Source of the DNA: Psammoneis japonica
Taxonomy: Eukaryota
DNA length: 36,339 nucleotides
Direction: 5' to 3'
Assembly: GCA_008632985.1 (NCBI GenBank)
Contig: QPGO01000170.1
Span: 124,001 to 160,339, forward strand
A program made the translations under genes and the position numbers. Shown one piece after another: positions 7,235-28,600 of the stretch. The first letter of the stretch is position 1, and every line of letters starts with the position of its first letter. The notes under the pieces were generated by a model that worked only from the letters and a program-made list of their open reading frames with translations, had not been told where the DNA came from and did no database searches.

Positions 7235-8243
7235 TCACACGCTCACTGTGTCGAAATTGTGGACTGGACATGCCATGTTCCTTTGATCCGAGTTCTTTTT
7301 GTCAGGCAAAGCTCGGTGCAACATTCTTGCATCAAAAACAAATGCAGTGCCTGCTTCTCCAACCAGCAATTGTTTTTCCAAACCCAACCTGACCAAGTGT
7401 TTTTTGCATTCCTTCTCATTCAATGTTGCCTCACAACCATCCAGCCATGTCTCAACTGCACCATTGTCCTCCATTGTGTCATCGAGGAACAGAAACATGG
7501 TGAAAATTTTGTCGCCAGGAAACAATTCTGTTTCCACGCAATCACAATGAATTTCCCCCTTTGACCAGAAGTTTGATGTTGAGCTTGAAAACTTGAAGCA
7601 GGGGCGTTTGCTGCTGTGTGCCGGGATGTCTTTCTGCATGAATCACCTGCTGGGGGAAAGCCAGGAATTGACCCCAACATTTTTCTGCCAACTCAATGCC
7701 TTCCGCCTTGTCCTTTTTGTCAATGATGAACTCACTGACAAAACGGTGTCCTTCCTTCTCTTGCTTGCTGCTTGGTGCCTTGTTTGCCAGGGTTGCAATC
7801 TTGTTGAACAGGGGTTGTGGTGTTTTGAATTTTTGCAAGCAGCCTTTTTTTCCTTCCTGGTGCACTCTTTCTTTGGACCCGGCCATCTTGCTCTTGACGA
7901 CATGAGATTTCATTTCACCCGGGTGTGCCAGTAACTTGCTGTGTTTCTGACATGATGTTGTCGGCCAATGGGCAAATTTCCAGCATCCGTCAACAGAACA
8001 CTTTTGCACCATTCTCTGAACATGCCGGCTCCACCAAATCAAATGGAACCCAGTCTTTTTTTTTAAGCAGAACAGACCCAATTCAGCGAAAGTCCGCATC
8101 CATTGCTGTGCAATGAGCATGGCTTTCTTGTGAAATCTGTGTTGCCAACGGCATCTGTTGGGTGCACGGCAGACGTTTTTTTCGTAAATGGTCCAGTGTG
8201 ATGTGATCTTCGTCCATCCTCTTTGCTGCATGATCTCATTCAA
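7235..8243 (-). pseudogene. PhyH-like 2OG-Fe(II) dioxygenase, frameshifted and hypermutated
   Basis: GEIHCD (HxD), TMFLFLDD..DNGAVETW, GEAGTAFVFDARMLHRA (distal His) and a downstream Arg in ORF 7235-7639. The N-terminal part probably lies in ORF 7542-8243, with a frameshift near 7560. Confidence 0.65.
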
Positions 8244-8435
8244 TGGGTCATCCCAGCTGTCTCAAAGCACAGAAAACAATTTGGTTGCACACTGTCTTGT
8301 CAGTGTTTTTGTGTGATGTTTTCATGTTGACACCGCGGCCAACACAAAGGAACAGCCACCATCCACCATTCATTCCGCACCAAAAACAAACTCTTTTAGA
8401 ACAATGTGTGCAATGAACAACTGCAAATGATGCTT

Positions 8436-8735
8436 CGGTGTCACTTTTTAATTGACACACCCACATGTCAACAGATCAATTTGGTGCCATTTTTTGTTGA
8501 TGCACTTGTCTGCCAACAGACCAATTTGGCACAACTTTTTCATTGTTGCACACATGTGTTGACATGTGTGTTTGGCATCACTTTTTTGTTGACACACCTG
8601 TCTGTCAACAGAGCAACTTGGTTTCACTTTTTTGTTTTGCACATGTGCGCCAACAGAAGAATTTGGTGTCACTTTTTTGTTGATGCACCTGTCTGTTGAC
8701 AGATCAATTTGGTGTCACTTTTTTGTTTGCACACT
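8436..8735. repeat. Degenerate tandem array, ~45-bp unit, ~6-7 copies
   Basis: Consensus approx. ttggtgtcacttttttgttgacacacctgtctgtcaacagatcaat, with an internal inverted pair TGTTGAC...GTCAACA. Confidence 0.85.
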
Positions 8736-9024
8736 GAACAAAAGCCAGTGCATTGTCGTGACATAAAGTGGATCTCCCGCAGCAAACCACATTCTCCCAA
8801 ATCTGGTCCAAGTCGCTGATCAACGCATTTTGAGCAGCAAACGGACAACGTTGGGGCAACTCTGTCTCTTGTCCTCCGCAGCCATGTCATTCCCTTTGTG
8901 AAACAATGACCTCAACATGATCCCACCCCAAAGAATGCCTCCCAATCCCTTGCCTGTTGTGCCACGTTGCTGAAATGGAGCTGACGAATCTCTTTTTTGT
9001 CCGGCGCATCGCACTTCTTTCCTG

Positions 9025-10544
9025 ATGACATTCCACCCAACTCAACCTGACATTGCTTTGCCACTGCCATGTCACAAAACAGCGTTGGCCAACATTCCAT
9101 CTGGCCGTTGTCCCCCATCGGTGCATCCAGCCCCGTTTGGCACAGAAAACAGCCTTGACACAAAATTGAGGCTGCATTGTTCTCCCACACGTTGGGTGAA
9201 CAAATGCGGTCACGTTCATTCATCACTCAAAAAAAGGGGTTTGACAGACCACTCAATCCGCGGCATTGTGCTGATGATGTTTGGTGCAAAAATCTTTGCG
9301 TTTGAGAGCAGTGGGAAGAGCAATGCATGCAACCCAAACCGCCTTGGTGAACTTGCAAAATGGCCGGCACATCCAAGCTACATTGGATTGGCTTTGAAGA
9401 GGGCTCCCAGAGCTGGCTCAACGAAAGAAAAAAAGGCATGCAGAAAAATCATTGATGTGCACTGCCTCCAAACCAAAAAATGCAAAAGATCTGTGGTGGT
9501 TCAGGTGAGGGATTGCATCTTGCGCACTGCTTCCATTTCCCATCTGTTCCTCACCCAACAAAATGCATGTTGATTTCTCCTAGAATGAAAGCAAAGCTAA
9601 AAGTCAAATGATTGCCACTGGTGTTGACTCCGGTGTGGAGGCTGCCCATGACTGTGACAATGACACAACTTGGGCAGAGACGGATGTCATGGATGACGAA
9701 CATCAAATTTTGACTGGGGCAGAGAGTGAAGAAGTGTTGCCAGCAAGGGATTGCATCTGTCGCACCACTTGCATTTCCCATCTGTTCCTTGCCTGACAAA
9801 ATGCATGTTGATGTCTCCTGGAATGAAAGCAAAGCTAAAAGTCAAACAATTGCCACCGGCATTGACTCAGGTGAGGAGGCTGCCCATGACTGTGACAACA
9901 ACACAACATGGGTGGAGACGGATGACATGGATGACAAATGTCAAATTTTGACTGGGCCAGAGAGTGAAGAATTGTTGCATGATGCTGGCAGATTGTTGAC
10001 AATTGGCATGGAAGTCGGTGGTGATTTAAATGGAAGTGACAAAGATGCGCGCAACAGCATTCAAACTCAATGCCTGCAGGATCTTGGATGTGATGTTTGC
10101 ACAATTGACAAGAAGACATGCGCTGTGCTTCCTCACTGAAGCACACAGAGTGCGATGTTCTAAGTTTGCACAGATCAGCGGAATGGAAGAGATCATCCAA
10201 AGAGACAAAGTTTGACCGCACTTGCTTTGACTGCGTGCATTCAAACCCAGCGCATCTCTTGGCTTCAGTTCTAAAGGGACCTTTTTTCCAAGATGCACTC
10301 AAGGAGCTGCTGCTGTTGCTGACGGAAAATGGGATTTTCTTCTTGCCTGCATGCAATCTTGCTTTTTCCAAATTTTGGGTCAAATGGAAGAAACAACACA
10401 TGTCGGAAGAGTGCCCAATTTGCTTCTTGCGTGAAGAGCAAGCACAGAACAAGGTCCCCATCCTTTGAGACAAGGCACAAGTTGACATCTCTGCCTGCGG
10501 AAAGTTTTGTGCAAGGGAAGAGTGCACAAAGGATCATGAGTTAA
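9025..10544 (+). pseudogene. Decayed multi-exon gene with duplicated acidic exon and possible C-terminal methyltransferase-fold domain
   Basis: Phase-0 introns 9505-9583 and 9743-9821 join ORF 9025 (...VVVQ) to two NESKAKSQ...ESEE exons. Downstream FDRTCFDC...LTENGIFFLP weakly resembles class I MTase beta4/beta5. Confidence 0.45.
9505..9978 (+). repeat. 238-bp tandem duplication of an intron+exon unit
   Basis: 9505-9742 aligns with 9743-9978 (gaatgaaagcaaagctaaaagtcaaa at 9583 and 9821). Many differences are TG<->CA swaps. Confidence 0.92.
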
Positions 10545-13157
10545 AACATGAAGAAGTGAAATGGCTCACACAACCAGGTGAAGCTGTGTTGGCGCATTTT
10601 CCAGATTTTGGAGGTCCAGTCAAATGCATCGGATTGGCCAGAAGAAGAAAGGACCCTTGCCATGTTCCAGTTTTCACCGGTGGCAACTGTGTGCATTGTC
10701 CAACATGCAGTCTCAAGAGACAGAGCATTTTCTGCAATGCCCATGTTGCAGGCCGGCTCCCATCCGGAATGCTGTGCAGTTTGATCTTGACTGCAAAGAT
10801 GCACCTGACTCTGCATGTGGAACAAAAAACAGCAAGAAAACCAAGGAAGAATCTCTCCTCCACCAAATCAAAAAGTGCAACGCCAATCTTGTCAGTTGTT
10901 GGAGGAAGAAGGGCCAACCACATGGGGCGGGTGGCAAGAACTGGGGTTTGTTGTCAATGCGTCCCAAAAGCCTTGGTGACAATTCCAACAACAAAAGAGA
11001 AGTCAAGCAAAAGTTCCACCTGAAACAACCTCGCCGGAAGTCCAACAAGCTGTCTGATGCGTTCGACAACAACATCCTTTTTGTTGAAAAACCAGGCAGG
11101 GAGGGAACGAGGTGTTCCCTCATCATCCACTTCAAGCTGCGTGCAATGCACATGGTGTGATGGGTCCAAATGCTTTAGAGCAAATGAGTCGGCACCTTCA
11201 ATGCAAGGCAGAGATTCTGCACTCGGGTGCCAACCACCCGCACCGGGCAAGTGATCCAACTCATCCATTTGTTTTGAACCCAGATGCAATGGAGGGAATC
11301 ACCAACAATGCTGTCTTCAGGTCACGCAAGTTTGACAAAAGAATTCTTGGACTCGGTTTGTCAACGCAGCTCAGAGCCATTGTTGAACAGGGGCTGAGCA
11401 GTGGGTCAGCACGAGAGTTTTTACTTGCTGCAAAGTTTGACCATTCATGTCGAGGCACTGTGCCAAAGATTTTGGCATGAATGGAGTGATTGCTCAAGGG
11501 TGGAGCCGCAATGGTGGATCAGGTGTTGCAAAGCCTGGAATGACAGAAAAGGAAAAAGACCTCTCTGCCAGGTGCAGACAGTGGATTTTGCAGCTGACCG
11601 TGATTTTGGTTCACGTCATGTGCCAAAAAGCTTTGCATGGAACACCAAGGTCTTCCCAAGGAGAAATGTTGGAGTGAAGATGAAGGTTGTCTGAGAAATG
11701 CCAAGCCTGGTTGGGTTGCCCAGAACAATTGCGAGGTGTGTTAAAGCTCAATGAGGCAGGATCTCACATTGCCGGTTTTCCTCTAAAACACTTTGACTCA
11801 GAAAATGAGCGGGAATTCCTCTTGGATGACATTGGCAACGGTGTTGTGTTCATTGATGATTGGCGGGGTTGCAACACTGGCAAAGATTTGGTGGATGAGC
11901 TGAGAAGGCATTCGGCACCCATCACGAACACAATGTTTGACCATCTGTTGCAAAACAGAGAGATCGTCGGAGTTCAGTTACAAAAGCTGCTGTTCAAGAC
12001 GGATTGTGAACATGCAAATGCCCCATTGGAACAACTGGAATCCCTGACAGATGGCTTCAACCTTTCCACAATGGAAAACACAGATGATGTTCAGTGCGCC
12101 ACCCAACACATTGGGGATCACCTTCAGTGATTTGACAGTGGCGACCATGAGGGCATGTTGGGATTGCTTGTTGATGAAGGCTCAGACAGAGACCTTCTCC
12201 TGGGATCACCCACAGCTGGTTCAATTTCACATTTCACTGTGAGGGGCATGTTGCTTTCCACCACAGAGACGAATTCGCGGCATTTGTGGGCATGGAATTC
12301 AATGGCGCACCTCTTGTTGCATTGAGGGAATCTGTGAAACCTGAAAACCAAGAATCTGTGAAGACTTTGTTGCAGAAAAATGAAGTGGGATTGTTGCGCC
12401 ACCAACTGGTGTTGATGATGAAGCAACTGAAGAACAACGGCAACATGAGCGGAACAACGTGTTCAATGTTGCAGAGATTTCAATGCATGGATCCTTTGTT
12501 GACCAACATTGAAGAGATGCAAATCTGCTGTGCATTCATTTCCAGTCAATTTGACACTCTGCAGGCAAAGGACACTGGCGGAAGTCACGAATCTGCCAGG
12601 GAACTTTTGTTTTGTCGAGAAGCCAGGAAGAACAAATCACCCAAGCAGTGGTTGCCAAGCAAGAGGTTGGGCGATGTGCGCGTGGCTTTGACGATCCAAT
12701 CGGCTTCCGCGATGGGACAAATCCCCCCTCAAAATGCGCAGTGGCATGCACATCCAAGGGCAACTCTGGATTTTGTCTCTTTGTCAGCATGTGTGTTGTC
12801 AGGAAGGAAGCACATGCGAGAGGTGAATGGATCTCCTTGTTGAAGGCAAGGGAAGTTGTTCAAAATGCAATTGAAGTTGCAAGAAAAAATGGCAGAAGAC
12901 CAACTTGGGCCAAATGTGACCAACTGGGCTGCAGGGAATGTCGATCAATGAACAACAAGTTGTGTGAGGATCCATGCCACCTCACATCTGGCGAGTGGGG
13001 TGTGTTGCCCGTTCCCTCTTTGGAACATTCGAACAAGTCGACAAGCGGTTTGTGGCCTGATGAATCAGAGCACAGGATTGAATGTTTTGTTGGTGACCAA
13101 TGGTGTGATTTTGTCAACTCATGTCAGTGTTTGCTCTTGAGTCAAGTCAAAGCATGA
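10545..13157 (+). pseudogene. Large decayed coding region, function unknown
   Basis: Consecutive protein-like plus-strand fragments (11687-12130, 12286-12843, 12612-13157) broken by TGA stops and frameshifts. No family recognised. Confidence 0.4.
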
Positions 13158-13400
13158 ATGGATGAAGCAGAAGGGTTTGTTCCAATTCCGAGAATCGAAA
13201 CTGAGCGGGACCAACCAGCACTTTTAGACAAATTAGCAAGATCTCACTGTTCGCTGCACTTGCTGATGGAAGGACCAACAAGGAGTGGAACCAACAGATG
13301 CTTTTAGATGGGTTGACACGCCTTCACAGCAAACTCATTAGAACACTGACAGAGTGCTTAAAAAAATTTACGAGCGTTTCCTTTTTCCCAAGGTGCGTTG

Positions 13401-14560
13401 TCATTTCTCTTCATCTCGCTTCCTGCGTTTGTCTGAGTGAAGCTGGAGCACTTTGTTGGACAGGAAATAATTTGGCCAGTCATTGTGTCTGTCTGCAACA
13501 AACAACAATGAGTTCGAGCATCCCGCTGCTTCAACATTGTCTCCATTGCAGTTGTTGGGAACCAGGACAGAGAAACCACCCGCTGTAATTGCGTCTCTGC
13601 CAGCATGCCAAAATTTTGGGACATGCAATGTCTTTGTCTGTTCCTTGCATGACTGTCCTGCGGCAAGTGGCGTTGTTCCGTCATCAGCCAGTGCAAAACC
13701 ATGGAGCACAAAAGGGTGCCTTTTTTTCTGACCGGTTCCCTCTTTGCACAAGACCCTGGGTGTGTCACACCACAACCCATTGTTGTTGCAATTGGGGTGT
13801 CCATGAATTAAAATCCCTTTCTCTGGCATGGCAAACTCCGAGCAAACAACAATTTCATCATGCTTGGTGGACAGTTCCTCCGTTGGCAACAACAAAAAAT
13901 GAAGCAGGGTGGAGTCCACTTCTGCAGTTTCCGGGACAACCCGGATCTTGTTGCTGCCTGAACACTGACAGCAAGTTTGGGCAGTTCTGTTCACAACAAA
14001 CAAGGGGTGCATCAATTTTCTTCAGAGGAAGATGCGCTTGCCTGGCCAACCATGGGATGGATGAGAGGGCTGCATGCCTTCTCGAGAACTGCCATGTCAT
14101 GCAAACGAACAACAAGTTGGTCCAAGAAATTGTCTGCACCCAAAGCAACCTGGCAAGTTTTTGCCGGAAGCTTGGCCCAGAACTTCAGGTGACTCTCTCC
14201 AGTCATGGCAGAGAAATTTGCAATCTGGCCACAAAGGAAAGAGTCGACAATGAGATGCAGCATAGAATGGAACTTGGTGGTCCGGAACAAACTGGTGTTC
14301 CTTGTGCGATGAAGGCAAACTTTTGTCTTGAACATGAGCAGGATGACGCGGCACTTGAAATCCACCTTTCCTGTTTTTTCATGGAGTCCCTTGCTGCAGA
14401 GACAAAACAAATGGAAAAGCAGCACATGATGCAACAAGTCCAACAATTCATCAACTCCACAATCGACGGATTTTCATGAAAGAGTCAGGAAGTTTGTTTT
14501 CCATTTCTGCACAAATGACAGTGCTTGGCAATTTTGACTTGGTGAGAAGAAAGTGCCATC
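13401..14560 (-). pseudogene. Plavaka-like transposase, C-terminal portion (left of the copia insertion)
   Basis: TKFHSMLHL...GQIANFSAMTGESHLKFWAKLPAKTCQ (14012-14446) and IHGHPNCNNNGLWCD (cf. HPNY...WYD) in ORF 13401-14015. Confidence 0.7.
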
Positions 14561-14565
14561 TGTCT
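14561..14565 (+). repeat. 5-bp target site duplication TGTCT (left copy; right copy 21609-21613)
   Basis: ccatc-TGTCT-tgacagg at the left end; ctgtca-TGTCT-gctc at the right end. Confidence 0.95.
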
Positions 14566-14841
14566 TGACAGGATTTGAACAGGATTTGGATGCGCGCGAA
14601 GCATCGCGCGCTGTTTAGTTTGCCGTGCACAGTTTTGTGTGCTTTAGTTCCGCGCGTTCACGCGCGATGTAGTTTGCTTTCGAGCCACAAGGCTCACAAG
14701 AACAATGACAGCAGCCCGATTATACCGACTTGCACGTCTTTCGGCTCCTGCAACGGTCTCTGAGCGGAGACTCATCTGCCATTTAGACAGCAGCAAGGAG
14801 TCATTGTTTGAATTCTTGCCATTTGCCTTCAATTTCTGTCA
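14566..14841 (+). repeat. 5' LTR (276 bp)
   Basis: Ungapped alignment to 21333-21608 with 12 mismatches; TG...CA ends with a 6-bp inverted terminus. Confidence 0.97.
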
Positions 14842-14858
14842 GATTGACAGTCTTGCTC
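14842..14858 (+). promoter_or_regulatory. Putative primer-binding site, half-tRNA type
   Basis: gattgacagtcttgctc directly follows the LTR. Its reverse complement GAGCAAGA-CTGTCAA-TC resembles an anticodon arm, and there is no TGG complement to a CCA end. Confidence 0.45.
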
Positions 14859-15715
14859 ATTGTCAACCCATTGAGCAACCGCCATCATCGTCGTTGATTT
14901 TCCAACGACGCTGTTTTTAATTCTGCGTGGACCTCCGTACATGTTCTACATGCATCGGCAAGTCTGCGCGCATTCAATGCCAGGGCATCGGCAGGAAGTT
15001 AACGTCACCGTCAAGTCTCCTCACCGCTGGACATCTGGATTGATCATGCTACCTTTGATCGCTGAAGACATACATTCAACGGTCACATCCAAGTCCATCC
15101 TTGATCCTCATCCCTTGATGTACCTGTTCACATCTTCACGGCCAAGAACCTGCACCCACTCTTCGGACTGCGGTTTTGCTGCCACTCTGCAAGCACACCG
15201 AGTCCATTGCACCTGATCTACCCCGGACCACTGGTGCTCTGCAGTTCCACTGGGTCCACGAGGACGACTGTGAGAGCAAGCAGCCGTGATTGCAGCCTGC
15301 GTTGGGGCGAGGGTGCTTTCCCGCGTTTGTTCGTTCGTCCACAGCGCCTGACGCCTACGTCAACTGGCCAGCCTGATCGGGAAATCCAACCGATGTAAAA
15401 TGAGAACGGTTCGGGGGTCTTGTCCACCTCTGGTCAGCTTACCTGCAGGGGTTTACAACCCGCTGCTCCGCTCGTAAGCAACCCAAAGCGCCACCAGCTG
15501 CGGGTTCGGACGTGCCGGCACAACTCTACGGACCGGATAGGAAGTTTAGCACTCAACAACGAACGGGATGACAAAGCCCGGCGACTTCTGATTTTTAAGA
15601 TAGTTCAAGATTTCAAGTCAAGTCTGTTTCAAGTCAAGTCCACTCTCACCCAAGTTTCGAGTCTACCTTCGCTTCCCAACCAGAATTGATTGTCCTGACA
15701 CCATTTTTGTCTACC

Positions 15716-18700
15716 ATGGTTCTCACTCGTCAGCAACAAACCGATGGTTTCGAGCACGTGGTTGGAACCGTGCTTGCCCAAGGTGCTGGGAGTCCTCTTC
15801 GTTTGGCTTTGGCCCAAGACGGCACGGACTCACATCAGGAACTATTCACGTTCATGCCGTCCCAAATCGACTCGCTTGAGTGCGACAACGGCACTAATGC
15901 AATCCCTTTGCCCCGTGGTTGTGAGAACATGTTAGCAGCACTGGTCAGTCTGTACATTGTTAAAGCACACAAAGGTCTTGACGTTGCCAACGACTCCTCT
16001 TTGTTCACGCATGACGAGTTCCTTGCCTGCCGCCTCAGCCCCGACTGCATGTCTTCTGTGTCCATCGGCAGCTCACCCCTTGCACCTCCACATGTCACCA
16101 ACCCGACCAAGGCACGCGACCCGGTGCGAGACTTCAAGCGAGGCATCAAGCGTGATCCCACCGCTTTCACGGCTCTCAAATCCGACAAGCAGTGGCACAC
16201 TTGGCACACCTCACTTGTGGCACAAGCCCGTGCCCAAGACGTCGAGTGCACTCTAGACTCGTCGTACAAACCGACCAGCCCCGAAGACAAACTGCTCTTT
16301 GCTGAACAGCAAAAGCACATGTTCGCCGTCTTCGAACGCATCCTTCTCACCGACAAGGGCAAGGCTCTCATTCGCGAAAATGTGGGGTCCTCTGACGCAC
16401 AGACCGTCCACCGCTCCTTGTCTGCACACGCGCTTGCCTCCACCCGTGCATCTGTCGAGTCCTCCACCCTGCTCACGCACCTCACCACCGCACGTCTTGG
16501 TGATGGCACTTGGAAAGGTCCGACCCACGGGTTCATCCTTCATTGGCAAGATCAGTTGCGCAAGTACGAGGCACTCATCCCCGCCAGCGACCACTTCTCT
16601 GAAGGACAGAAGCGCGTCATGCTCGAGAATGCCGTGCATCCTGTCGAGGAACTCCGTGCTGTCAAGAACCAAGCTGATCAGCATCGTACGCAGAGTGGCA
16701 AGAGCCTCACATGCGATCAATGCTGTGGCTTGCTCCTCTCCGCGGCAGCTCAGTGCGACAGCACGTTTCAACCCAAGACGACACCTCGAGCTCCCCGACG
16801 CGCCATGTGCGCACACGACGTCTGCTCCGAGGAACCGTCCGACGATGTGTTCTACGACATTGACAGCGACGTTGACGTCCTTCAAGCCAATGCTGCCTGC
16901 ACTCGTGGTCCCAGCCTCACCGGTGTCCAATGGAGACGTCTCCCTCCCGACCACCAACGGCTCTGGGATTCGTTGCCCGATTCCACCAAGGCGATCATCC
17001 TCGAGCACTCTCGTCCGCCTCCCCGCAACCCGCGAGCCAGTGACCACCATGAGTCTGTTATGGCCAACCTTCACGACCAACACCTTGGGAGTGACGGTGA
17101 TGTCAACTTGTCCAACACGACTCCTGCTGACTGTGGTGACCCCGCCACACATGTGGATGCCACTTCGGATGATCCCATCCTGGCGCACCTCACCAAGCGC
17201 AAGCCACTGCCACCCGGTGATCTGCAACGTCTGTTGTCTCCTAACCAAGCCCCCAATGCCAGTCGACCGGGGCCATCCGCCGCTTCCTCCACCCCGCCAG
17301 CTTCTGCAGATGACATGGAACTTAACGGCCGCACTTGCCGCCGCGTCAACAACCACAATGTCATTTGCTCTGCCTCTGCTCATCGCTCCACACGCACTGG
17401 CGCTCTAGTCGATCGTGGGGCCAACGGCGGCATTGCTGGCGACGACGTTCGCATCATTGCACGCACCTCTCGCCAAGTCGACGTTCAGGGCATCGACGAT
17501 CATCAATTGGTGGACATCCCCATTGTCACCGCTGGTGCCGTCATTGAGACCCAGCGTGGTCCCGTCATCGCCATCCTCCATCAGTGCGCATGCACGGGAA
17601 AGGGCAAGACCATCCACTCCTGCGGCCAGCTCGAATGGTGCAAACAGGATGTCAACGATCGCTCTGTCAAGGTGCCCAACGGCTTGCAACGCATTGCCAC
17701 TCCTGATGGCTGTGTCATCCCCATTGACATCAAGGCTGGCCTGCCTCATGTTGCCATGCGACCTTGCACTGACGCCGAATGGGACACCCTGCCCCATGTC
17801 ATCCTTGCCGGTGATGACACATGGGACCCTTCCGTCCTCGATCACTCTGTCACTGACGACGACCAGTGGTGCGACGCGATCTCTGATCCACAGGACGATC
17901 CCACTGCCAACCTGTTTGACGAATGCGGCAACTGCCGTCACCGTGTCATTGTCAACGAGACCATCTTGTCCGCTTCCTTGTCTGCCGATCACGCGTCCGC
18001 CCTCGATGATCACCTCATTCCGAACGACGACGTGTTCTACGAGTGTCATCTGCATGCGATTGACCCCACGGGCGATGACGTTCCACCTCCGGAGCGCACT
18101 GTAAAGCCCAAGGACCCCCCCTTCGAGTCTCTTCGGCCTTGCTTTGGCTTCCCACCTGCCGATGCGGTCCGTCGTACTTTTGACTGCACCACGCAGCACG
18201 CCCGCATGCCCGCCGGTACACACCTTCGCAAGGCCTGCAAATCACCCAACCCCGCCCTTAATGTGCACCGCCGCAACGAGCCCATCGCCACTGACACCGT
18301 TCATGCCGACACCCCGGCCGTCGACTCTGGTTGCACCAGCGCCCAACTGTTTGTTGGCACCGAGTCTACCGTCACTGACGTCTGCGGCACTGAGACGGAC
18401 AAAGAGTTTGTCAACACACTCGAGGATCAGATCCGTGAACGTGGTGCACCATCCAAACTCATTAGCGACCGTGCTCAAGTTGAGATCAGCAACAAAGTGC
18501 TCGGGATCCTACGCGCCCTCTTCATCTCCAGCTGGCAAAGTGAGCCTCACCAGCAACACCAAAACTTTGCCGAGCATCGATGCCAGACTGTGAAGCGCAT
18601 GGCGAACACTGTCATGGACCGTTTTGGTTCGCCCGCCCACACATGGCTGCTGGCGCTCATGTGCGTGTGCTTCATGCTCAACCATGCAGCATCCCCACGT

Positions 18701-21385
18701 CTCCACTGGCGCACGCCCCTCGAGACTCTCACTGGATCCACCCCGGACATCAGCCCATTGCTTCGCTTTCACTGGTGGGAACCAGTGTGCTTCCACCTCG
18801 ATGACTCCGATTGGCCGTCCGAATCTCGTGAGTTGCGTGGACGCTTCGTTGGCATTGCTGAGCACGTCGGCCACCAGATGACCTTCAAGATTCTATCTGA
18901 CGAGACTCAGAAGATCCTCTGCCGGTCCAACGTTCGCTCCGCCACCCCCGATCCTGCCGTTCGAAACCTGCGTCTTGATCCTCCTGATGGGGAGCCACCT
19001 GAACCCATCATCAAATCTCGCCATGACGACAACCCCGTCGATTCTCCTGATGGGGAGATCAGGACACCCAAGATGCCAGTTTTCGATCCGCAAGACATCA
19101 TTGGACGTACCTTCCTCATGCAGCCACAAGAGGATGGACAACGCCACAGAGCTCGCATCGTCAAGGCCGTCGAAGACCACGAATGGAAAGTGAACGGCAA
19201 TCCCGAGCTCACTAAGTTCGTCTGCTCTGTCAACAATGACGAATACGAGGAAGTCCTTGCCTGCAATGACATCATGAATCACATTGAGCAAGAAGACGAA
19301 GACACCACCATTTGGAAATTTCGACGCATCGTGTCACACGAAGGCCCTCTGAAGCCTCACGACCCAACCTGGAAAGGCTCAAGCTACAACATCATGCTTG
19401 AATGGGAAAGTGGGGAGATCACGTCCGAGCCTCTTGCCATCATCGCCAAGGACGACCCCGTCACCTGTGCCATCTATGCACGAGAGAACGGACTCCTCGA
19501 CACGGATGGATGGAAGCGGTTCCGCACCATCGCGAGGCGCCAAAAGAAGCTATTTCGCATGGCCAACCAAGCCAAGCTTCGCTCCTTCCGCACTGCACCT
19601 CGCCACAAGTGCGGATGCGAAGTTCCCCGGAACTACAAACACGCCATGTCACTAGACGAACACAACGGCAACCGCAAGTGGGGAGACGCAACTAATCTCG
19701 AGATGGACCAACTCGACGAATACGAAGTCTTCCATGACTGCGGGCCCTTCAAGTCTTCCACTCCTCCTGCGGGACACAAGAAGATCCGAGTCCACCTGGT
19801 GCACGACGTGAAACACGACGGTCGCCACAAGGCACGACTCGTAGCCGACGGGCACCTCACGGACGTACCTGTCGACAGTGTCCACTCCGGAGCAGTCTCC
19901 CTTCGTGGCCTTCGGCTGATGATTTTCCTGGCCGAACTCAACGAGCTGGAGACATGGGCCACCGACACTGGCAATGCCCACCTTGAAGCCACCACCAAGG
20001 AGAAGCTTTACATTGTAGCTGGACCCGAATTTGGCAAACTCGAAGGACACATCCTTGTCATCCACAAGGCACTGTATGGACTCCGCAGCTCCGGTCTCCG
20101 CTGGCACGAGCGCTTCGCCGACTGCCTGCGAGCTGAAGGCTTCTTCCCCTGCCGCGCCGAACCCGACATTTGGATGCGCAGGAACGGCGACCACTGTGAA
20201 TGCATTGCCGTTTATGTGGATGACCTCGCCATTGCCATGAAGGACCCTCAATCTTTCGTCGACACTCTCACGGAAAAGTGCAAGTTCAAGCTCAAGGGTG
20301 CGGGACCCATTGAGTTCCATCTGGGTTGCGACTTTTCCCGGGACCCCGACGGAACCTTGTGCCTGTCTCCGCGCAAGCACATCGAGCGCATGGTCGACAG
20401 CTGCGCCCGACTGTTTGGGGAGAAACCTGCCACCAATGCCCTGTCACCTCTAGAGAAGGGTGACCACCCCGAACTGGACACTTCCGAACTGCTGGGACCC
20501 GATGGCATTCACAAGTTCCAGTCTCTTGTTGGTTCACTCCAATGGGCAGTGTCCCTTGGTCGAATTGACATTGCCACGGCCGTCATGTCACTCTCTAGCT
20601 TCCGAGCTGCACCCCGTCAAGGCCACTTGGATCGTGCCAAACGCGTCTGTGGGTGCCTCTCCAAGATGCGACACGGTGCTCTCCGCGTTCGCACGGAAGA
20701 GCCCGACCATTCGGATCTCCCTGCTCCGGCCTACGAATGGATGCATTCCGTGCATGGTGAAGCAGAAGAGATGATCCCGAAGGACGCTCCACCGCCCCTT
20801 GGCAAGTTCGTCACTGCCACCCACTGCGTCGATGCAAACTTGCACCATTGCATGCTCACCGGACGCTCTGTCATGGGAATGCTCCACTTCCTCAACAAAT
20901 TCCCGGCTGATTGGTTCTCCAAGAAACAAGCCACCGTGGAGACTGCAACCTGCGGATCTGAATTTGTTGCCGCAAGGAATTGTGTTGAGCAGATTGTCGA
21001 CCTGCGCATCACCCTGCGCCACCTTGGCGTCCCGATCCGTAATGTCAGTCACATGTTCGGTGACAACAAGTCGGTTGTAGACAGTGCCACCATCCCGCAC
21101 TCCAAGTTACACAAGCGACACACCGCACTGTCGTTCCACCGTGTGCGTGAGGCAATTGCCTCTGGTTGCCTTGAGTTCCACTTCATCGAAGGCTCCCGCA
21201 ACCCTGCTGACATTCTCAGCAAGCATTGGGGTTGCTCCCAAATCTGGGACCTTCTCCGCCCCCTCATGTTCTGGAACTTCATTCCATCCGAAGTCGAATC
21301 TGTTTCTGTGGCTCCTCAAGCAAACTGGGGAGTGACAGGATTTGAACAGGATTTGGATGCGCGCGAAGCATCGCGCGCTGTTTAG
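15716..21385 (+). CDS. Copia Gag-Pol polyprotein (open frame, missense-riddled)
   Basis: ATG at 15716 (MVLTRQ). Protease LVDRGANGG (~17405); integrase ATDTV / ISDRAQVE / QNFAE (~18285-18575); RT KARLVADGH, KALYGL, YVDD (~19830-20225); RNase H VDAN, GSEF, FGDN, NPADILSK (~20830-21225). Confidence 0.95.
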   Translation: MVLTRQQQTDGFEHVVGTVLAQGAGSPLRLALAQDGTDSHQELFTFMPSQIDSLECDNGTNAIPLPRGCENMLAALVSLYIVKAHKGLDVANDSSLFTHDEFLACRLSPDCMSSVSIGSSPLAPPHVTNPTKARDPVRDFKRGIKRDPTAFTALKSDKQWHTWHTSLVAQARAQDVECTLDSSYKPTSPEDKLLFAEQQKHMFAVFERILLTDKGKALIRENVGSSDAQTVHRSLSAHALASTRASVESSTLLTHLTTARLGDGTWKGPTHGFILHWQDQLRKYEALIPASDHFSEGQKRVMLENAVHPVEELRAVKNQADQHRTQSGKSLTCDQCCGLLLSAAAQCDSTFQPKTTPRAPRRAMCAHDVCSEEPSDDVFYDIDSDVDVLQANAACTRGPSLTGVQWRRLPPDHQRLWDSLPDSTKAIILEHSRPPPRNPRASDHHESVMANLHDQHLGSDGDVNLSNTTPADCGDPATHVDATSDDPILAHLTKRKPLPPGDLQRLLSPNQAPNASRPGPSAASSTPPASADDMELNGRTCRRVNNHNVICSASAHRSTRTGALVDRGANGGIAGDDVRIIARTSRQVDVQGIDDHQLVDIPIVTAGAVIETQRGPVIAILHQCACTGKGKTIHSCGQLEWCKQDVNDRSVKVPNGLQRIATPDGCVIPIDIKAGLPHVAMRPCTDAEWDTLPHVILAGDDTWDPSVLDHSVTDDDQWCDAISDPQDDPTANLFDECGNCRHRVIVNETILSASLSADHASALDDHLIPNDDVFYECHLHAIDPTGDDVPPPERTVKPKDPPFESLRPCFGFPPADAVRRTFDCTTQHARMPAGTHLRKACKSPNPALNVHRRNEPIATDTVHADTPAVDSGCTSAQLFVGTESTVTDVCGTETDKEFVNTLEDQIRERGAPSKLISDRAQVEISNKVLGILRALFISSWQSEPHQQHQNFAEHRCQTVKRMANTVMDRFGSPAHTWLLALMCVCFMLNHAASPRLHWRTPLETLTGSTPDISPLLRFHWWEPVCFHLDDSDWPSESRELRGRFVGIAEHVGHQMTFKILSDETQKILCRSNVRSATPDPAVRNLRLDPPDGEPPEPIIKSRHDDNPVDSPDGEIRTPKMPVFDPQDIIGRTFLMQPQEDGQRHRARIVKAVEDHEWKVNGNPELTKFVCSVNNDEYEEVLACNDIMNHIEQEDEDTTIWKFRRIVSHEGPLKPHDPTWKGSSYNIMLEWESGEITSEPLAIIAKDDPVTCAIYARENGLLDTDGWKRFRTIARRQKKLFRMANQAKLRSFRTAPRHKCGCEVPRNYKHAMSLDEHNGNRKWGDATNLEMDQLDEYEVFHDCGPFKSSTPPAGHKKIRVHLVHDVKHDGRHKARLVADGHLTDVPVDSVHSGAVSLRGLRLMIFLAELNELETWATDTGNAHLEATTKEKLYIVAGPEFGKLEGHILVIHKALYGLRSSGLRWHERFADCLRAEGFFPCRAEPDIWMRRNGDHCECIAVYVDDLAIAMKDPQSFVDTLTEKCKFKLKGAGPIEFHLGCDFSRDPDGTLCLSPRKHIERMVDSCARLFGEKPATNALSPLEKGDHPELDTSELLGPDGIHKFQSLVGSLQWAVSLGRIDIATAVMSLSSFRAAPRQGHLDRAKRVCGCLSKMRHGALRVRTEEPDHSDLPAPAYEWMHSVHGEAEEMIPKDAPPPLGKFVTATHCVDANLHHCMLTGRSVMGMLHFLNKFPADWFSKKQATVETATCGSEFVAARNCVEQIVDLRITLRHLGVPIRNVSHMFGDNKSVVDSATIPHSKLHKRHTALSFHRVREAIASGCLEFHFIEGSRNPADILSKHWGCSQIWDLLRPLMFWNFIPSEVESVSVAPQANWGVTGFEQDLDAREASRAV
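21322..21332 (+). promoter_or_regulatory. Polypurine tract
   Basis: aaactGGGGAG directly abuts the TG of the 3' LTR. Confidence 0.7.
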
Positions 21386-21608
21386 TTCACCGCGCACAGT
21401 TTTGTGTGCTTTAGTTCCGCGCGTTCACGCGCGATGTAGTTTGCTTTCGAGCCACAAGGCTCACAAGAATAACAACAGTAGCCCGATCATGCCGACTTAC
21501 ACGTCTTTCGGCTCCTGCAACGGTCTCTGAGCGGAGACTCATCTGCTGTTTAGACAGCAGCAAGGAGTCATTGTTTGAATTCTTGCCATTTGCCTTCAAT
21601 TTCTGTCA
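21333..21608 (+). repeat. 3' LTR (276 bp)
   Basis: Matches 14566-14841 at offset 6767. Confidence 0.97.
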
Positions 21609-21613
21609 TGTCT

Positions 21614-24601
21614 GCTCACCTTGCAAAGTTGTCCCGATCATCCGCCAAACCAACGACAAGACCATGTGGTCCGGGCATCAACAATTGATCAGGTGAAGTC
21701 TCAACAGCCCGTTGGTTCCGTCTCAATGATTTGGTTTCATCCCATGCAATCTTCTGGCACAACAAAAAGTGACCATCATCCAGTTGATTGGAAAATGGTT
21801 CCCAAAATTCAGAAAGGCCGTGACGATGCATCTGTTGCATCACACAGCAGGCGACATCCAACCATGTGCCTCTGGGAAGTGCAACAGGCACATTCTCATC
21901 AACCGGGCTTGTGTTTGTTTCACCAGTTTGTTCATTTGATGGTTCAACGGGATCAGGGTCCTCATCGTTGGGTCCACTTTCTGACAATTTGGTCAGTTGT
22001 TCTTCTTGTTGCTTCTTTCCTTTAAAGCCATCAGCCGTCTTTTTCTTTTTGCTGTCAAAGGATGGATCGCACCTTTTTTCCAGCAGTTTTCTGCCAGCGT
22101 GTGTGTGGCCAATGATGGCAAGTGCAAGAAGCTTGCCCACCTTCTCGTCACACACAAGTTGACTGAGTGTGGAAAGTCCCCCATCAACTCAAATTCGCGG
22201 ACAGTCACGTCTCTGACCAGGACGACAATGGGATGTGCAGAACAATTCAGATGCAATCTGGCCGCACTCCTCTTTCTGTTTGGCAGACATGTCTCCTGTT
22301 GTTGCCTCCATCATTTGAGGGACAATGCCCACCTCCAACACATGCATTGTGTCAGCAATGGTCATGCCAAATGCACCGCGTGGGCTGTCACCCATGCCAA
22401 GTGGAAAGTGAGCATTGTCCACCATGTGCTGTCCAAACACTTTCCTCAACATTTTGGAGCACACAGTCATTCGGCGAATGAGGGAGGAAGCCAGCTCAGT
22501 CTCGGCCTTTTTTTTTTGATGTCATTGCACGATGCTTCCGGGCAACGCTTTTGACATGCTGGTGCCAACAGCTGTTGTCATCCTCTGGATCTGGGCCCAA
22601 TGCAGCAACAGCGAGCAACTCTGTGAAAGCCTGGTCAAAGAATTGGCAGACATGGAGGGGATCATCAGAAAGGTGGGAGGGCACATGGCAGTTGTGAGAC
22701 AACCTCTTGGTCTTGCTTTGGCCCCATGTCTCTTCCACAAATGTGTTCTTGATTGAGGACATCCCCCAACAGGGAGTTGCAATGCATTGTGGCTCTGACA
22801 CAGCAGCATTGAGTGCCTGTCATTGCACGAACAATGGGTGGATTTGCCTGGCAATGAAGCAGACCACGGAGAACCTCCTTGAGAATGTGGTGGCAGTTGG
22901 CAACAACAAGGCACCCAAGCTTGTCTTTCTTGCATTTCTTGTCCAAATTGGGTGTGAATCCAAGTGGATGCCAACAACGACAGTCGCGGCGTGTGTCCTC
23001 TCGAATCATGGCAAGTGAGTGCATTGCAGGCTCCATCCCATGAGGATTGACCGCATCAACTCCAGTCTTGTCCGGGCATTTGACAAGGTGAATGTGAAAG
23101 TCAGAGGCTGTTTCCTTGGCATTGGAGCAATGTTGTTGCCACTCGCCATCACCCATGTCTTGACTTTGAGTGGACAATTGCCAGTCACCAGGACAATCCA
23201 GGAACTGCATCTCAACACTGTCAGCCTGGCCAGCACTGGAACCCAAATCACCGTCAGCAGTGGGTGGCACACAAGGTGACCAGATGTCATTTGGATTGAC
23301 CTGCAACTTGGAAAGATCACGGAACACTGGCTTGGCAAAGAGATCCTGCAAGGTCTTGGTGAAACTGCAAACTGGGAAAGGTGGGGAGTGACAACATTTT
23401 GGTCCATCCTTCTGTTGCTGCATTGGATTGTTGCATTCAAGCATCACAACAGCAGTGCGGGGGAGAGGAACATTGGGAAATGGCCCCAGGAGTTGCTTCA
23501 TTGCCACGGTGGTTGTGATGGGGGCTTTGACACATCCAGTCTTTTTTCTGCATGCTCTTCATGCTAAATTCTCATCACTTTGTCAATGAAGTCAATTGCG
23601 ACACCTGACCGATGACATGAATGATGCAAATGCACTGTGGGTGCAATGCTGGGTGAGTTGACTGGAGGTGCATCAAAGTCCTCATTGGGTGCAACATCAT
23701 GCACTGGGCCAAGAGGATTGTGTTGATTGAAGGAAGAAACAGGCTCTTCCATTGGACGGGAAATTGAGGGGGGCCCAGAACTGCCATTGAGATGGTCAGC
23801 TCCAATGAACTCGGGGACATCCACAGGACTGTCCTCTCCAAGGGCAGACACGCCATTGTCTGCAAACAAAACAAATTGGCGGGCATTTTGGGAGGCTGCA
23901 CTGGCAGCAGCAATGTTGGCGGCTAAACGCAATTGACCAGACCGTCTGATGGAGGGTGGGCGCAGTCCATTTCCGGCAGAGGGAGGGCAAGCTGGAGAAG
24001 AATTGTCCGATGGTGTGGGAGGAGATGGAGCTGGATTCCAAAGGACTTTGGGGAGGGGAGGAGGGGGTTTGTCATCGGCAAAACCAAACCCAGCAGGATC
24101 GTCATGGTCGTCCAGTGATTCATCATCTGCAGGGGGGAGTGCATTTGTGGCATTGGAAGATGCGGCATGCCGGCAAAGGGACATTTCCTCCTTTTTGCGG
24201 CAGGGCAAGTGCTTCTGTAGATGAAGGGCGATGTTGGAAAAGGGGACACGGCAATGGGGGCATTTGGGTTTGTTGGTGTTGGACCCAAGGGAGCCAACGG
24301 AGGCGGAATCCAGAGGATGAGAGGAAAGAGATGTTCTGCCGCATGGGGAAGACAATTGGGTTGCATGGCGCAACTGTGTCAATGGGGGATGAAGGCCAAA
24401 TGCAGCAGCACAGTGCCGAGATGGGTGACACTGCACATTGTTTTTGGAGTCAAATCCACATTGTCTGCAACGAGGACAACTGAAAGACTTGGTGGAAACG
24501 GCAGAACGGAGGCAGTTAGTTCTGATGTGCCTGCTGAGACCACGTTCGGAAAAGAAGCCAGTTTGTTTGCACCATGGACAAACAAGACCATCAGACAACA
24601 T
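21614..24601 (-). pseudogene. Plavaka-like transposase, N-terminal and core portion with C2H2-type zinc fingers
   Basis: ATG at 24601 (MLSDGLVCPWC...LSRH; CPRC; CPHC...LQKH). Core motifs PDKTGVDAVNPHGMEPAMHSL...WHPLGFTPNL, NCHHILKEVL, LLGD...ICG, VDNAHFPLGMGDSPRGAFGMTIADTMHVLEVGI. Several stops and frameshifts. Confidence 0.75.
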
Positions 24602-25189
24602 GGTCGATGTGCAGAGAAAAAGGAGTTGAGAAGAGAGTCGAAAGGAAACAGCATGTGCAGCAACAATCACTTGGGGATTTGGTGAGGGCAGAAACATGCA
24701 AAGAGAAACAATGTGCAATCAAGGGGGGAAGGCGTTGTGGACAGACGGGATGGAAGGATGGAAGGGGCAGGGAGAGAAAATTTAGAAGACAAGCAGAACC
24801 CACCTTTGCGAACACATGCGGCGATTTTGATCCAGAAAGTTGATTGACACACAATCCAGAAATTAACACAGAATTGAATGAACACACAAGGCTTGTCAGA
24901 TGGGGGGGTGAACAGTTGAATTGAGGAACACAGATGTTTGTTGTTGAACATTTCACAAATGCTGACTTGACAAATCAGCACGATCTTGGATTGAAGGGAG
25001 AGAATGTTGGGTTTTGTTTAAAGAAATCTTGACAGCCAGTGCAACACCTGGATCATTGGTGTCCCAGATGTCACAGAGAGTTCTGCCTGGAGCTGGGGCA
25101 TGCCAACCCATTTGCCACTGCTCAATGCTGGCGCGTGCAAGGCAAAACCACCTCTTCTTGATGTGCACACCCAGCCAGTGGCTGGAGCC

Positions 25190-25625
25190 AATGGCAAGAG
25201 AAGACACACTTCCCTTGCTCCCTCAGCTTTGAGAGAGCACAGTTTCAATTGATCTGGTTTGTTCTCATGGGATCACAACAGCCTGCAGAAGCAGCGCTTG
25301 ATGGTGCTGATGCCATGTTGTGCCATTGTTTTCTCAAACAAGGCCCTGCAAGCAGAGGCAATCTTGCTGATTCATTCACAGCCTGATGTTTCAGTGCAGA
25401 GCTTGCAAGCAGAATTCTGGTGTGGGTGCAACATCACACACAGCCAGTCCTGCCTGAAGCTGGAGCATGTCAACCTCTTTTTGGCAGCTGCTCAATGCCA
25501 ACATCATGTGCAAGGCTCACACAGCCTCTTTGTGCATTCAGCGGGGTGAGCCAGTGACAAGAATGCACACACTTCTGTTGCTCCTTCAGCTTTGAAAGGG
25601 CACAATTTCCATTCATCTGGTGTGT
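25190..25625 (-). repeat. Internal repeat pair (~60 bp core, ~363 bp apart) in decayed coding-like DNA
   Basis: KLCSLKAEGAREVC (~25205-25248) vs KLCPFKAEGATEVC (~25567-25610), with matching DNA. Confidence 0.6.
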
Positions 25626-28600
25626 CCTCAGGGGGCAGTTGGCAAAAGCACTTTGGGGAGAATGCAATGAGTTTGCCAGCAGGCAAGACAGATGCCCGCA
25701 TGAGAGCAGGAGGTGGGTGCAGTCTTTGGTCATGAGAGAGACAGCCCAACAGATGCAAGACTTTGTGGTCAATCAGAACACTGAAAATGCAATTTGGCAA
25801 CAAACAGTTGAAAACACCACACATGAATGTTTGCACCACCCCAATTGAACAGGTGGCAGATCAAAATTTTTGCTGCCAGAAGTTTGTCAATTTTTCAAAA
25901 TGTGACAGAAATGCACAAAAATGTGACACAACATGAGAAGTGACAATGACAACCATGCAGGGATGAAAACAGCATCTGTGCTAATTTCAGGCATGCAGCA
26001 GCAACAATGTGAGCATGACAAGTTTGGCTGATGCAATGTTTTGTTCACTGGTGTCTTGACAACAATGACCCAAACAGGTGCACATCTTGTCGATTGCAGC
26101 TCAACACATCTGGCACATTTTGTCACATGGAAATCAATGAACAGTGTCACACCACATTTGTCTGCCCATCACCCATTTTGTTGCCTGGAATCCATGAGAA
26201 AGAGTTCCCACACTTTAAGATGAGTTGTGCAAGCTTGAGATCTAGGGCAGATCTAAGTTGTGCCACACAGTGCCCTGTTTTTTTTAGAGAGCACCTCAAG
26301 ATGTTCAAACAGAGTGCAAGAGTGCGGTGAGTGGCCCTTGGAAAGCAAAAAAACAGACCAAAATGAAAGCAGGGTGCCAAATTCACAAAAAACACAGATC
26401 TGTTTGCTCCATGATTTGGTGCCTGATGCATGGGCTCTCTTCCCCGCTGTGTTGCAAAAAAACCTGAGATCAGCCTTGCAACACCTGCCAGCATTGTCAA
26501 TTGTCTGCCTTTGATGTTTTTTTGTGCAGCACCATTCTTGAACATCTCAAGAGTTGTGTGGGGCAGGTGGATTTTCAAGAACTTCAAAAGCATCAGACCT
26601 GTTCCAGCTCCAGGTGTCCTGCACAGTGTGTGCAACCCATCACTGGCCCATTTTTGCATTTGGCACAATGAACTCGTCCTTCAAAATTGATTTCCTCCCT
26701 GAATTGAAGGGAGAGTGCATGCAAAACTTTTTTCTTTGTGTGCAGTCATCTTTCAATTTTTGAAATGATCAAGTTTGAAGGAGCTCAATGTGCCAAGCTG
26801 CACAGAAAATTTGCCTCTCACATGATGGAGGATTGCAGATCATTTGGGGCTCCTGGAACAGGCCATCAAGAGCTGTGGTCACACCACCAACTCTGTTGCC
26901 TGCTCAGATGTTCAGTGTCACACACAGCCCCACCTGGGGCCAGAATGCATCAAGAAAATGATTGGCAAGCACAAGCTGGGAAGTGTTGCCCAAATGTTTT
27001 GCTGCTTGTTGCTGGCTCTGCAGCAGCATTGGCCAGAGACAAAAGCCTGGTGGCACTTGACAGCATTGCTTGTGAAAGGTTGAGAGTTGCCAGCCAGACA
27101 CACACTTCAAGCTCTTCAGACAATGTCTGCTCTGTGGCAGCTGGAAGCAAACAATCCAAAACAGCAGTGACACAGAGATGTTGGAGCAGTTGGCCAACAG
27201 CTGGCACAGAAGCTTTTGCCAGGGTGATGCGCGAGAATTGCCACAATGTGGCCACAACTGCTGCCGCACTCAAGCTCACAAAGAAGAAGAAGACAACAAT
27301 GAGGAAGAGCAGAAAAGGATCCAATGAATGCACTGAAGCATGCACTCAAGGGGAAAGACACCAAAAGGCATCAAGGAGAGAGCAAAAGTGATGCCAAGTG
27401 CTTCATTGAGTGAGCATGGTGAAGTCAATGCACAGCACCTGTGAATCAAGAAGTCAGTCAGATGACACACACAAAAGAAACGCAAGATGAAGGGGTGGGA
27501 TCACCCAAAAATGTCTCACATGCTGGACCCTGAGATTGAGAGGCCACATTGACATGTGGGCATGGCATGTGAACATGACACAGTGTTGACAAGTCAGGCA
27601 CACATGAATGAGTGGTTTGCACATCTGGCTCAACAGATCCAAGCTGCTGTGTGCTGCTGCTCTCCCGAGTGCAGAGATCCCTTCAGAGCACAAGAGTGAG
27701 CACAGCCCCCAGAAAGCAAGTGGAGTGCAAGAAGCCATGAGAAAGCAGGTTGCCCAAGCAATTTGGCAGCTGGCTGGAAAGCTGCTGGCAGCAATGCATG
27801 TGACTCAAGCTCACACTCACTTGAAAAAAACAGCAGGAGCAACTGGAACCAGTGAGTTGTGAAGCTCTTTTGAATCCTGACATGATCTCACACCAGTGCA
27901 GTTGGGAGGTCTGCTGTCTGTTCAATGCCCAATTTGCACCACAACACTTGGTCTCTCTCCCTTCATTGCCAACCCACAGCAGGGAAAATGATCCTCAACA
28001 ATTGCACTTGCACTCAGCATGAAAAAATCTGCCCATCAACATTGTTGCGCAACTTGACAGAGTTTTGTTGCAGGCCCACTGACAGTGAAAGAAGAGTGCT
28101 GCTGCCTCAAGAATGGATTTGAGCTCAAGAATGATGTGGCTGTGGGGTGCAATGGCAGTCTTTGAAGCATCGGCTCATTTTGCCATGCATGACAGCCTGA
28201 CACCACACGCAGCCAGAGAACATGAATGAAGTGTGCCAGTCCAAAAAGGGCACCCACATCATGCAAAATGCAAATGACATCACATGTGTGCACACCTGAG
28301 AGAAGCCGCACCATGTCCACACAGGTTCAAGGTGCACACTTGTGTTGTCCACATCCTGAAGATTCGGCATTACAGGAGTTCCAGGTGGACACACACGTCA
28401 AGCTGGGCCGCGTCGACTCTTGCGAGGACTTGTTGATGCCCGTTCCTTGACCGCTTCTTTGAGATCACACACATTGTCAGGAATGGGATGAATCGATAAC
28501 CTGTTCACCGCGTAGAAATATTTGTTGGGGAGCCTGCACAGCAGTTATCGCAGGCCTGAGGGACCGCAACGGAGTCTTGAAACACCTGACACGTTAGACT

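Follow-up and report, generated by a model that had tools for sequence, protein, structure and literature searches.

The DNA analysed here (the window) is a stretch of 36,339 nt from Psammoneis japonica contig QPGO01000170.1 (assembly GCA_008632985.1, positions 124,001–160,339 of the forward strand), and all coordinates below are those of the window. At 14566–21608 it carries a complete, young Ty1/copia-type long terminal repeat (LTR) retrotransposon with Gag-Pol in one frame, enclosed in a TA-erased tract of 26.8 kb (∼1661–28490). Within the element the dinucleotide TA has been changed to TG or CA, most conserved tyrosines of Gag-Pol have become cysteine or histidine, and the reading frame has stayed open. 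It is very probable that this erasure took place in situ, by a regional process acting on the inserted element at the DNA level.

The element has the paired direct LTRs with TG...CA ends, the 5-bp target-site duplication and the RVT_2-type reverse transcriptase of a copia element (Table 1). The triad D860/D918/E953, by its motif the putative integrase core, lies upstream of RVT_2, which would fit the copia gene order. The stretch labelled protease was likewise assigned by motif and is presumably the active site. The Pfam families rve and gag gave no match in the window Gag-Pol; since 12 of 12 relatives scanned also matched RVT_2 only, the absent matches are a family trait, and we rejected them as a sign of damage.

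Gag-Pol contains 14 Tyr (0.74%), 57 Cys (3.02%) and 95 His (5.03%) in 1,889 residues, in line with the hand count of ∼14 Tyr in ∼1890 residues in an earlier reading made from the sequence alone (the sequence-only reading). Among all 120 relatives listed, which are 59–71% identical to Gag-Pol residues 900–1889, Tyr makes up 2.86–4.52% (mean 3.87), with mean values of 0.98% for Cys and 3.52% for His. Relative to these means the window protein is short of ∼59 Tyr and has a surplus of ∼67 Cys plus His. The sequence-only reading had quoted ten peptides as carrying Cys or His where Tyr is normal. All ten are present in the translation of 15716–21385, and the relatives' consensus that aligns with them does carry the Tyr (for example SVYSG, DIGNAYLEA, YEYIAVYVDD, ETATYGSEF, LRYLG and HWGYxQ).

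The window protein was aligned with 50 full-length relatives (those of 1800–1950 residues among the 120 matches, taken in id order until 50 were reached), and a column was called conserved if at least 80% of the 50 relatives agreed, the window being excluded from the definition. This gave 753 conserved columns. At the 38 that are Tyr, the window has 7 Tyr, 19 Cys, 9 His, 2 Phe and 1 Trp, whereas at the other conserved columns it keeps the residue in 660 of 715 cases (92.3%), within the relatives' own span of 88.1–97.6% (Fisher p = 1.7 × 10−25). The 50 relatives retain 84–100% of the Tyr columns and have Cys or His in 11 of 1,900 cells. Positions lost in the window although Tyr in 50/50 relatives are residues 255, 336, 551, 624, 740, 1183, 1390, 1422, 1496, 1680 and 1769, and within the RVT_2 stretch six conserved Tyr (1354, 1390, 1422, 1494, 1496 and 1555) are now His or Cys.

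The alignment also gives the direction of change. There are 86 mismatches at the 753 conserved columns, 65 of them one base change away; 34 of these 65 are TA to TG or CA (TA-type) and 5 are CpG-type. The TA-type changes affect 28 Tyr, with three Thr to Ala and one each of Lys to Glu, Val to Ala and Ile to Met. At 29 of the 34 sites the window residue is found in 0/50 relatives, and Cys and His of the window stand opposite Tyr in them, so the direction TAY to TGY or CAY (Y being C or T) put forward by the sequence-only reading stands. Both outcomes occur, with 24 TG and 10 CA on the coding strand of the open reading frame (ORF) (binomial p = 0.024). The polarised sites were uninformative as to a preferred 3′ neighbour, because Tyr codons fix that neighbour.

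Over the whole element the observed/expected ratio (o/e) of TA is 0.23 (78 TA in 7,043 bp) and that of CG is 0.94. Related metagenome loci have a TA o/e of 0.44–1.02 (median 0.69, n = 65), and none of the 65 lies below 0.44, in a sample skewed against stripped copies since TVETATYG with its Tyr was part of one of the two patterns used and the ranking of loci was by score. Using as baseline the 20 of these loci with an ORF of at least 1,500 codons, the surviving share of TA is 0.19 in the codon's Tyr phase and 0.20 and 0.11 in the other two. Codon-phase survival thus gives no sign of selection guarding Tyr, with only the Tyr-phase baseline stable among relatives. Read from the alignments, the changes are TpA-specific transitions from A:T to G:C on either strand, and both direction and specificity are demonstrated by these comparisons.

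A functional lineage that is naturally Tyr-poor and avoids TA under compositional selection could also give a protein of this composition. None of the acidic residues taken as catalytic has changed, and the element has 56% GC with 32% C on the + strand, more than TA loss explains. However, the 11 replaced positions at which all 50 relatives have Tyr, and the loss of Tyr-phase TA to the same degree as largely synonymous TA, are not what such a lineage should show, and neither are LTR copies that differ at TA sites or non-coding flanks that share the loss (see below). We regard this alternative as hardly credible. The base composition itself (C 32.4%, G 24.0%, GC 56%, against a median GC of 48% in relatives) is a separate matter: ∼250 TA losses are too few for the C-richness, and C-ending codons therefore seem to be a trait of the element's own sub-lineage.

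The LTR pair bears on the timing. The two copies differ at 12 of 276 columns (4.3%), made up of three TG-vs-CA doublets, five TA-vs-TG/CA sites and one CG-vs-TG site. Eleven of these columns are TA-type, one is CpG-type and none falls elsewhere, and each LTR carries both outcomes. Both LTRs share 4 TA and 20 CG. With only one CpG change in ∼21 CpG sites, an origin of the three doublets from CpG ancestors is implausible; they are explained by TA ancestors that were hit in each of the copies. On this count the TA erasure in the LTRs is ∼46% (11 hits in 24 visible site-copies, 5 to TG and 6 to CA). Since the LTRs of an element are identical at integration and these are now unlike at TA sites, the comparison demonstrates that part of the TA changes post-date integration. 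By an ordinary clock the insertion is young and, judging from these columns, neither CpG decay nor background mutation comes near TA loss in speed. LTR dating would be misled by such a pair, 4.3% divergent without any differing column outside TA and CpG sites.

Change before integration, by ADAR-like RNA editing or by a deaminase acting on single-stranded cDNA that was then inserted, would account for the 24:10 excess of TG over CA on the coding strand and for an ORF erasure above that in the LTR comparison, and ADAR-type enzymes favour a 5′ U (Mettrop et al., bioRxiv 10.64898/2026.01.13.699255). Yet the LTRs, which are copies of one template, have come to differ at 11 columns of the TA type, TG and CA both occurring in either LTR; both strands are hit; and the flanks, which are not part of the element, are even more erased, share sharp edges and show the same TG/CA doublets in their tandem repeats. 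Edits common to the LTRs, limited to the element and confined to one strand, the traits of ADAR hyperediting, are not found. Change before integration is thus very unlikely as the explanation.

The reach of the process becomes apparent from the flanks. TA o/e is 0.0–0.15 in each 1-kb bin of 2001–15000 and 22001–28000, against 0.39–0.74 at the ends of the window. In the 19.8 kb of old flanks 64 TA are left, and CG o/e is 0.08–0.73. Both edges are sharp, the left one falling between a TA at 1658 and the bin 1801–2000 (0 TA), the right one between a TA at 28371 and a cluster of TA that starts at 28497. TA and CpG depletion have these edges in common, which suggests targeting by silent chromatin. 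Tandem copies inside the tract are split by TG/CA doublets (8 in the 238-bp pair 9508/9746 and 5 at 8434/8571), whereas those outside it show 0 and 0. Because the flanks are CpG-poor and the element has a CG o/e of 0.94, the copia element appears to have landed in DNA that was already processed, and TA loss to precede CpG loss. The Tyr loss reported by the sequence-only reading is real, but the ORF is not special, TA loss being stronger in the flanking 19.8 kb; a view restricted to the ORF missed both the regional reach (26.8 kb) and the action after integration.

Table 1. Features of the copia element and of the TA-erased tract around it (window coordinates)
Feature	Position	Strand	Remarks
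Older TA-erased, CpG-poor repetitive tract, left of insertion	1661–14560		50 TA in 2001–14565; CG o/e 0.1–0.73 per kb
5′ target-site duplication TGTCT	14561–14565	+	Same 5 bases directly 3′ of 3′ LTR
5′ LTR, 276 bp, TG...CA	14566–14841	+	Direct repeat; 12 columns unlike 3′ LTR
Leader, 874 bp, LTR to start codon	14842–15715	+	ATG at 15716 fits the MVxTR start of the relatives' consensus
Gag-Pol ORF, 1,889 codons plus TAG (21383–21385)	15716–21385	+	Single frame, zero internal stops
Probable protease active-site stretch LVDRGANGG, residues 564–577, unchanged	17405–17446	+	D566, R567 and G568 invariant in alignment with relatives
Probable integrase D,D35E core, D860/D918/E953, unchanged	18293–18574	+	Invariant columns, spacings 58 + 35 residues
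Reverse transcriptase, Pfam RVT_2, residues 1351–1561	19766–20398	+	PF07727, 90.3 bits, E = 2 × 10−25; YVDD kept
3′ LTR, 276 bp, TG...CA	21333–21608	+	Direct repeat of 14566–14841
3′ target-site duplication TGTCT	21609–21613	+	Matches 14561–14565
Older TA-erased, CpG-poor tract, right of insertion	21614–28490		13 TA in 21609–28000; CG o/e 0.08–0.49

The old flanks have 57 ORFs of at least 110 residues; 56 of these were scanned and none of the 56 matched a Pfam family, and tblastn with five relatives found no copia fragments outside the element. The normal ends of the window carry ordinary-looking ORFs, one of them with an FG-GAP repeat (one match in the protein search). The TA that survive in the flanks, pooled over both strands (n = 64), are followed by A in 56%, G in 26%, C in 13% and T in 5% of cases, compared with ∼23/22/30/25 in normal DNA. 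This suggests that TAY is hit first and TAA/TTA last, although the survivors may instead be recent back-mutations. Repeats of 43–45 nt are common to the left and right old flanks (3524–3904, 3772–3814 and 25220–25625), a hint of a common origin of the two flanks in copies of a single older repeat.

Further copies of the element were seen in runs X1–X4; these consist of contigs from a single sample, which may be the very source of the assembly, and contain at most 0.65 of the sampled words. In run X1, 13,490 contig pieces fall on the element, and its variable places comprise 264 transitions and 33 transversions (n = 297). The 40 best-supported of the 305 X1 places listed divide into 24 TA-type, 7 CpG-type, 4 other transitions and 5 transversions. 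At residue 956 the window has Cys and most X1 contigs have His; the window's Tyr at residue 284 is Cys in the contigs; at residues 69 and 1297 most X1 contigs have Tyr. Summed contig depth, which is not a copy number, is 59,000–213,000 on the element and 1,100–1,400 on the flanks, and from this depth the element's family has many copies. Run X1 also gives a weak trace of the empty site, as it would be in a paralogue or an allele, with three contigs that join 14560 to 21609 with 5 letters in common, the shorter side being 27 letters.

Relatives of the same kind exist elsewhere. Three of 150 representatives from a library of 1.84 billion proteins are Tyr-poor fragments of the element's family, all on metagenome contigs and from three unrelated assemblies. 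Of the conserved Tyr columns, P0221 retains 0 of 14 (with 8 Cys and 4 His), P0171 4 of 13 and P0265 1 of 5. Their outcomes are unlike those of the window at several sites, so these are independent hits. Active relatives with the same Cys and His residues would speak against a damaged element, as the sequence-only reading had pointed out; the carriers found are these three Tyr-stripped fragments alone.

These copies also bear on the possibility that the genome is truly TA at these sites and that a modified base at TpA in silent DNA was miscalled in sequencing or assembly. Modified bases give context-specific miscalls in some long-read data, and the platform behind the window and runs X1–X4 is not on record. 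Within one run, however, different copies read TA, TG or CA at one site, with both states in many contigs; contigs of up to 315 kb speak for accurate reads; and the Tyr-stripped relatives come from three unrelated metagenome assemblies. Mixed miscalling on two strands would also tend to create CG, whereas the flanks are CG-poor, and the comparable result in Bigelowiella natans was obtained from Illumina reads (bioRxiv 10.64898/2026.01.13.699255). An artefact is thus extremely improbable.

The signature matches the process known from B. natans. Mutation-accumulation lines of this species yielded 231 mutations in two viral regions, of which 230 were A>G or T>C and lay at TpA without exception, and an ADAT2-like adenine deaminase acting on DNA was proposed (Mettrop et al., bioRxiv 10.64898/2026.01.13.699255). 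The two cases share A:T to G:C change only at TpA, regions of foreign DNA beside normally mutating genes, and low TpA with high CpA plus TpG in the long term; TpA-poor coding sequences in B. natans are enriched in reverse transcriptase and DDE domains. The window in turn has the TpA-type transitions, both outcomes and a bounded tract with normal neighbouring genes that mark the Bigelowiella type. They differ in that B. natans is a chlorarachniophyte with mainly giant-virus and virophage inserts, rather than an LTR retrotransposon; that rates were measured there and are inferred from LTRs here; and that CpG loss joins TA loss in the old tract here. Depletion is also deeper in the window, a hypermutable region from a nucleocytoplasmic large DNA virus having a Rho(TpA) of 0.45 in B. 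natans, against 0.0–0.15 in the flanks and 0.23 in the element. What the window adds is the polarised read-out at the protein level, the order of loss (TA before CpG) and the intact-looking frame.

Other known processes fit less well. Repeat-induced point mutation (RIP) as known from Neurospora and other ascomycetes (PMC7296669) resembles the present case in its dense dinucleotide-specific transitions in mobile DNA, its sharp borders and its inactivation of transposons in place. RIP, however, is C>T (CpA>TpA), raises TA and AT and makes stops, and the element has changed in the reverse direction: TA is depleted, GC is raised from the ∼47% of the flanks to 56%, and the frame has zero stops. Decay of methylated CpG by deamination is another source of TG and CA, and the old flanks show it, but it cannot remove TA, and the young element has a CG o/e of 0.94 against 0.23 for TA, with one CpG-type against 11 TA-type columns in the LTR pair. 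A literature search, with bioRxiv supplements outside its reach, found no report of TpA>TpG/CpA hypermutation besides the Bigelowiella preprint. The available text of that preprint has no mention of diatom, retrotransposon, tyrosine or stop codon, and diatom transposon papers including Maumus et al. 2009 (PMC2806351), in their available text, have no mention of hypermutation, dinucleotide or RIP, nor, in one case, of GC content or degenerate and, in another, of TpA or deaminase.

We propose the following course of events. A Ty1/copia-type element would have inserted into repeat DNA that was already nearly TA-free and mostly stripped of CG. A process acting on DNA would then have changed TpA in situ to TpG or CpA, by A:T to G:C transitions on either strand. 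It would have covered the whole tract, spared the neighbouring genes and removed about half the TA of the LTRs and some four fifths of that of the coding region. The agent may be a DNA adenine deaminase with a 5′-T preference, directed by silent chromatin or by repeats, as proposed for B. natans, and the process would serve genome defence. The tRNA adenosine deaminases act on A34 beside U33, which would fit the 5′-T rule.

The same in-situ process could instead work through thymine, the T of TpA being modified (e.g. to 5-hydroxymethyluracil) and then misrepaired or miscopied to C. TpA is self-complementary, so A>G and T>C on the opposite strand look alike in sequence, and thymine modifications of such a kind exist in some protists. 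The sole experimental report favours an ADAT2-like adenine deaminase, which is itself a hypothesis there (bioRxiv 10.64898/2026.01.13.699255). We consider the thymine route unlikely.

Several observations weigh against in-situ erasure of the element by a regional process. The old flanks are without outgroup polarisation, and the base calls, with runs X1–X4 drawn from one sample, are not independently proven. YVDD and the acidic residues that we count as catalytic by their motifs are intact. Among relatives the baselines for the xTA and xxT|A codon phases scatter widely (17–78 and 36–117 per 1,000 codons). Finally, conserved Tyr have been lost to a greater extent (82%) than TA in the LTRs (∼46%). 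Part of the coding change could therefore have come with a source copy that already bore mutations, or the process may favour TAY as a context; hidden double hits in the same direction in the two LTRs are a further possible cause of the difference.

An enumeration of all codons in every context confirmed the claim of the sequence-only reading that TA>TG/CA makes no stop from a sense codon. Acting on stops, the change turns TAA into TGA or CAA and TAG into TGG or CAG. In contrast, stops arise from CAA, CAG and TGG under RIP-type change and from CGA under CpG decay; Gag-Pol has 66 Gln and 32 Trp codons that a RIP-type change could convert. The expectation that the element would look intact to annotation pipelines was also borne out, by a single open frame and by an RVT_2 score of 90.3 bits against 86.9–115.4 in 12 relatives. 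Because TA change at Tyr gives Cys or His and can give no stop, the frame is open and its hidden Markov model (HMM) score near normal despite dozens of replacements at conserved positions. The Gag-Pol protein is nevertheless probably dead, as the replaced invariant tyrosines lead us to infer.

The loss of stops extends over the tract. TAA plus TAG number 3.8–6.1 per kb in the old flanks, against 26.5–38.6 at the ends of the window, and ORFs of at least 100 residues number 3.6–4.4 per kb against 1.5–1.8. Twenty-five ORFs of at least 100 residues overlap 14–23 kb, many of them 100–380 residues long and in the element's other five frames; this abundance over the element follows from the loss of TAA and TAG.

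For annotation, this means that erased elements retain long open frames and near-normal HMM scores. Conserved Tyr replaced by Cys or His offers an outgroup-polarised read-out that can be used on protein databases. The present case carries over to LTR retrotransposons, in a second and probably diatom lineage, a process so far described in a single 2026 preprint for a chlorarachniophyte. Here it has come near saturation, and a widespread algal defence becomes plausible and testable. We put forward, tentatively, a broader idea: that TpA erasure is a dedicated defence by DNA adenine deamination, guided by silent chromatin or repeats, in at least stramenopiles and rhizarians, in which a stop-free kill by Tyr to Cys/His and related missense changes leaves ‘zombie’ frames and TAA and TAG are deleted in all frames. 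If this is true, gene counts and LTR-based insertion ages are systematically inflated in such algal genomes. Loss of TAA and TAG may also account for part of the excess of unannotated proteins in the TpA-poor clusters of B. natans (bioRxiv 10.64898/2026.01.13.699255).

Some further features of the element and its surroundings were noted. The Gag-Pol frame enters the 3′ LTR by 53 nt (21333–21385), and relatives P0033, P0037, P0040 and P0041 likewise end in a KRGVT-like stretch matching the start of the LTR. The C-terminal extension was rejected as proof of an erased stop, as the ends of relatives are variable and several enter the LTR too. The element resembles the CoDi copia elements of diatoms in its copia-type one-frame Gag-Pol, in RVT_2 and in having relatives that abound in metagenomes from water. 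The phylum is on record for one member of the Atlas cluster nearest to it and is Bacillariophyta, a weak taxonomic hint. Variant joints also occur near 14560 and 21609, and flank depth is far above that of single contigs; the flank seems to be a repeat family, some copies of which are without the copia insertion.

Beyond the tract, the window has a single assembly N at 34816. The minus-strand ORF 28773–30233 gave a sub-threshold importin-like match alone in Pfam and no homologue in the protein search. Inside it, at 29044–29412, are at least five tandem units of 63 nt (21 codons) that are 64–71% alike.

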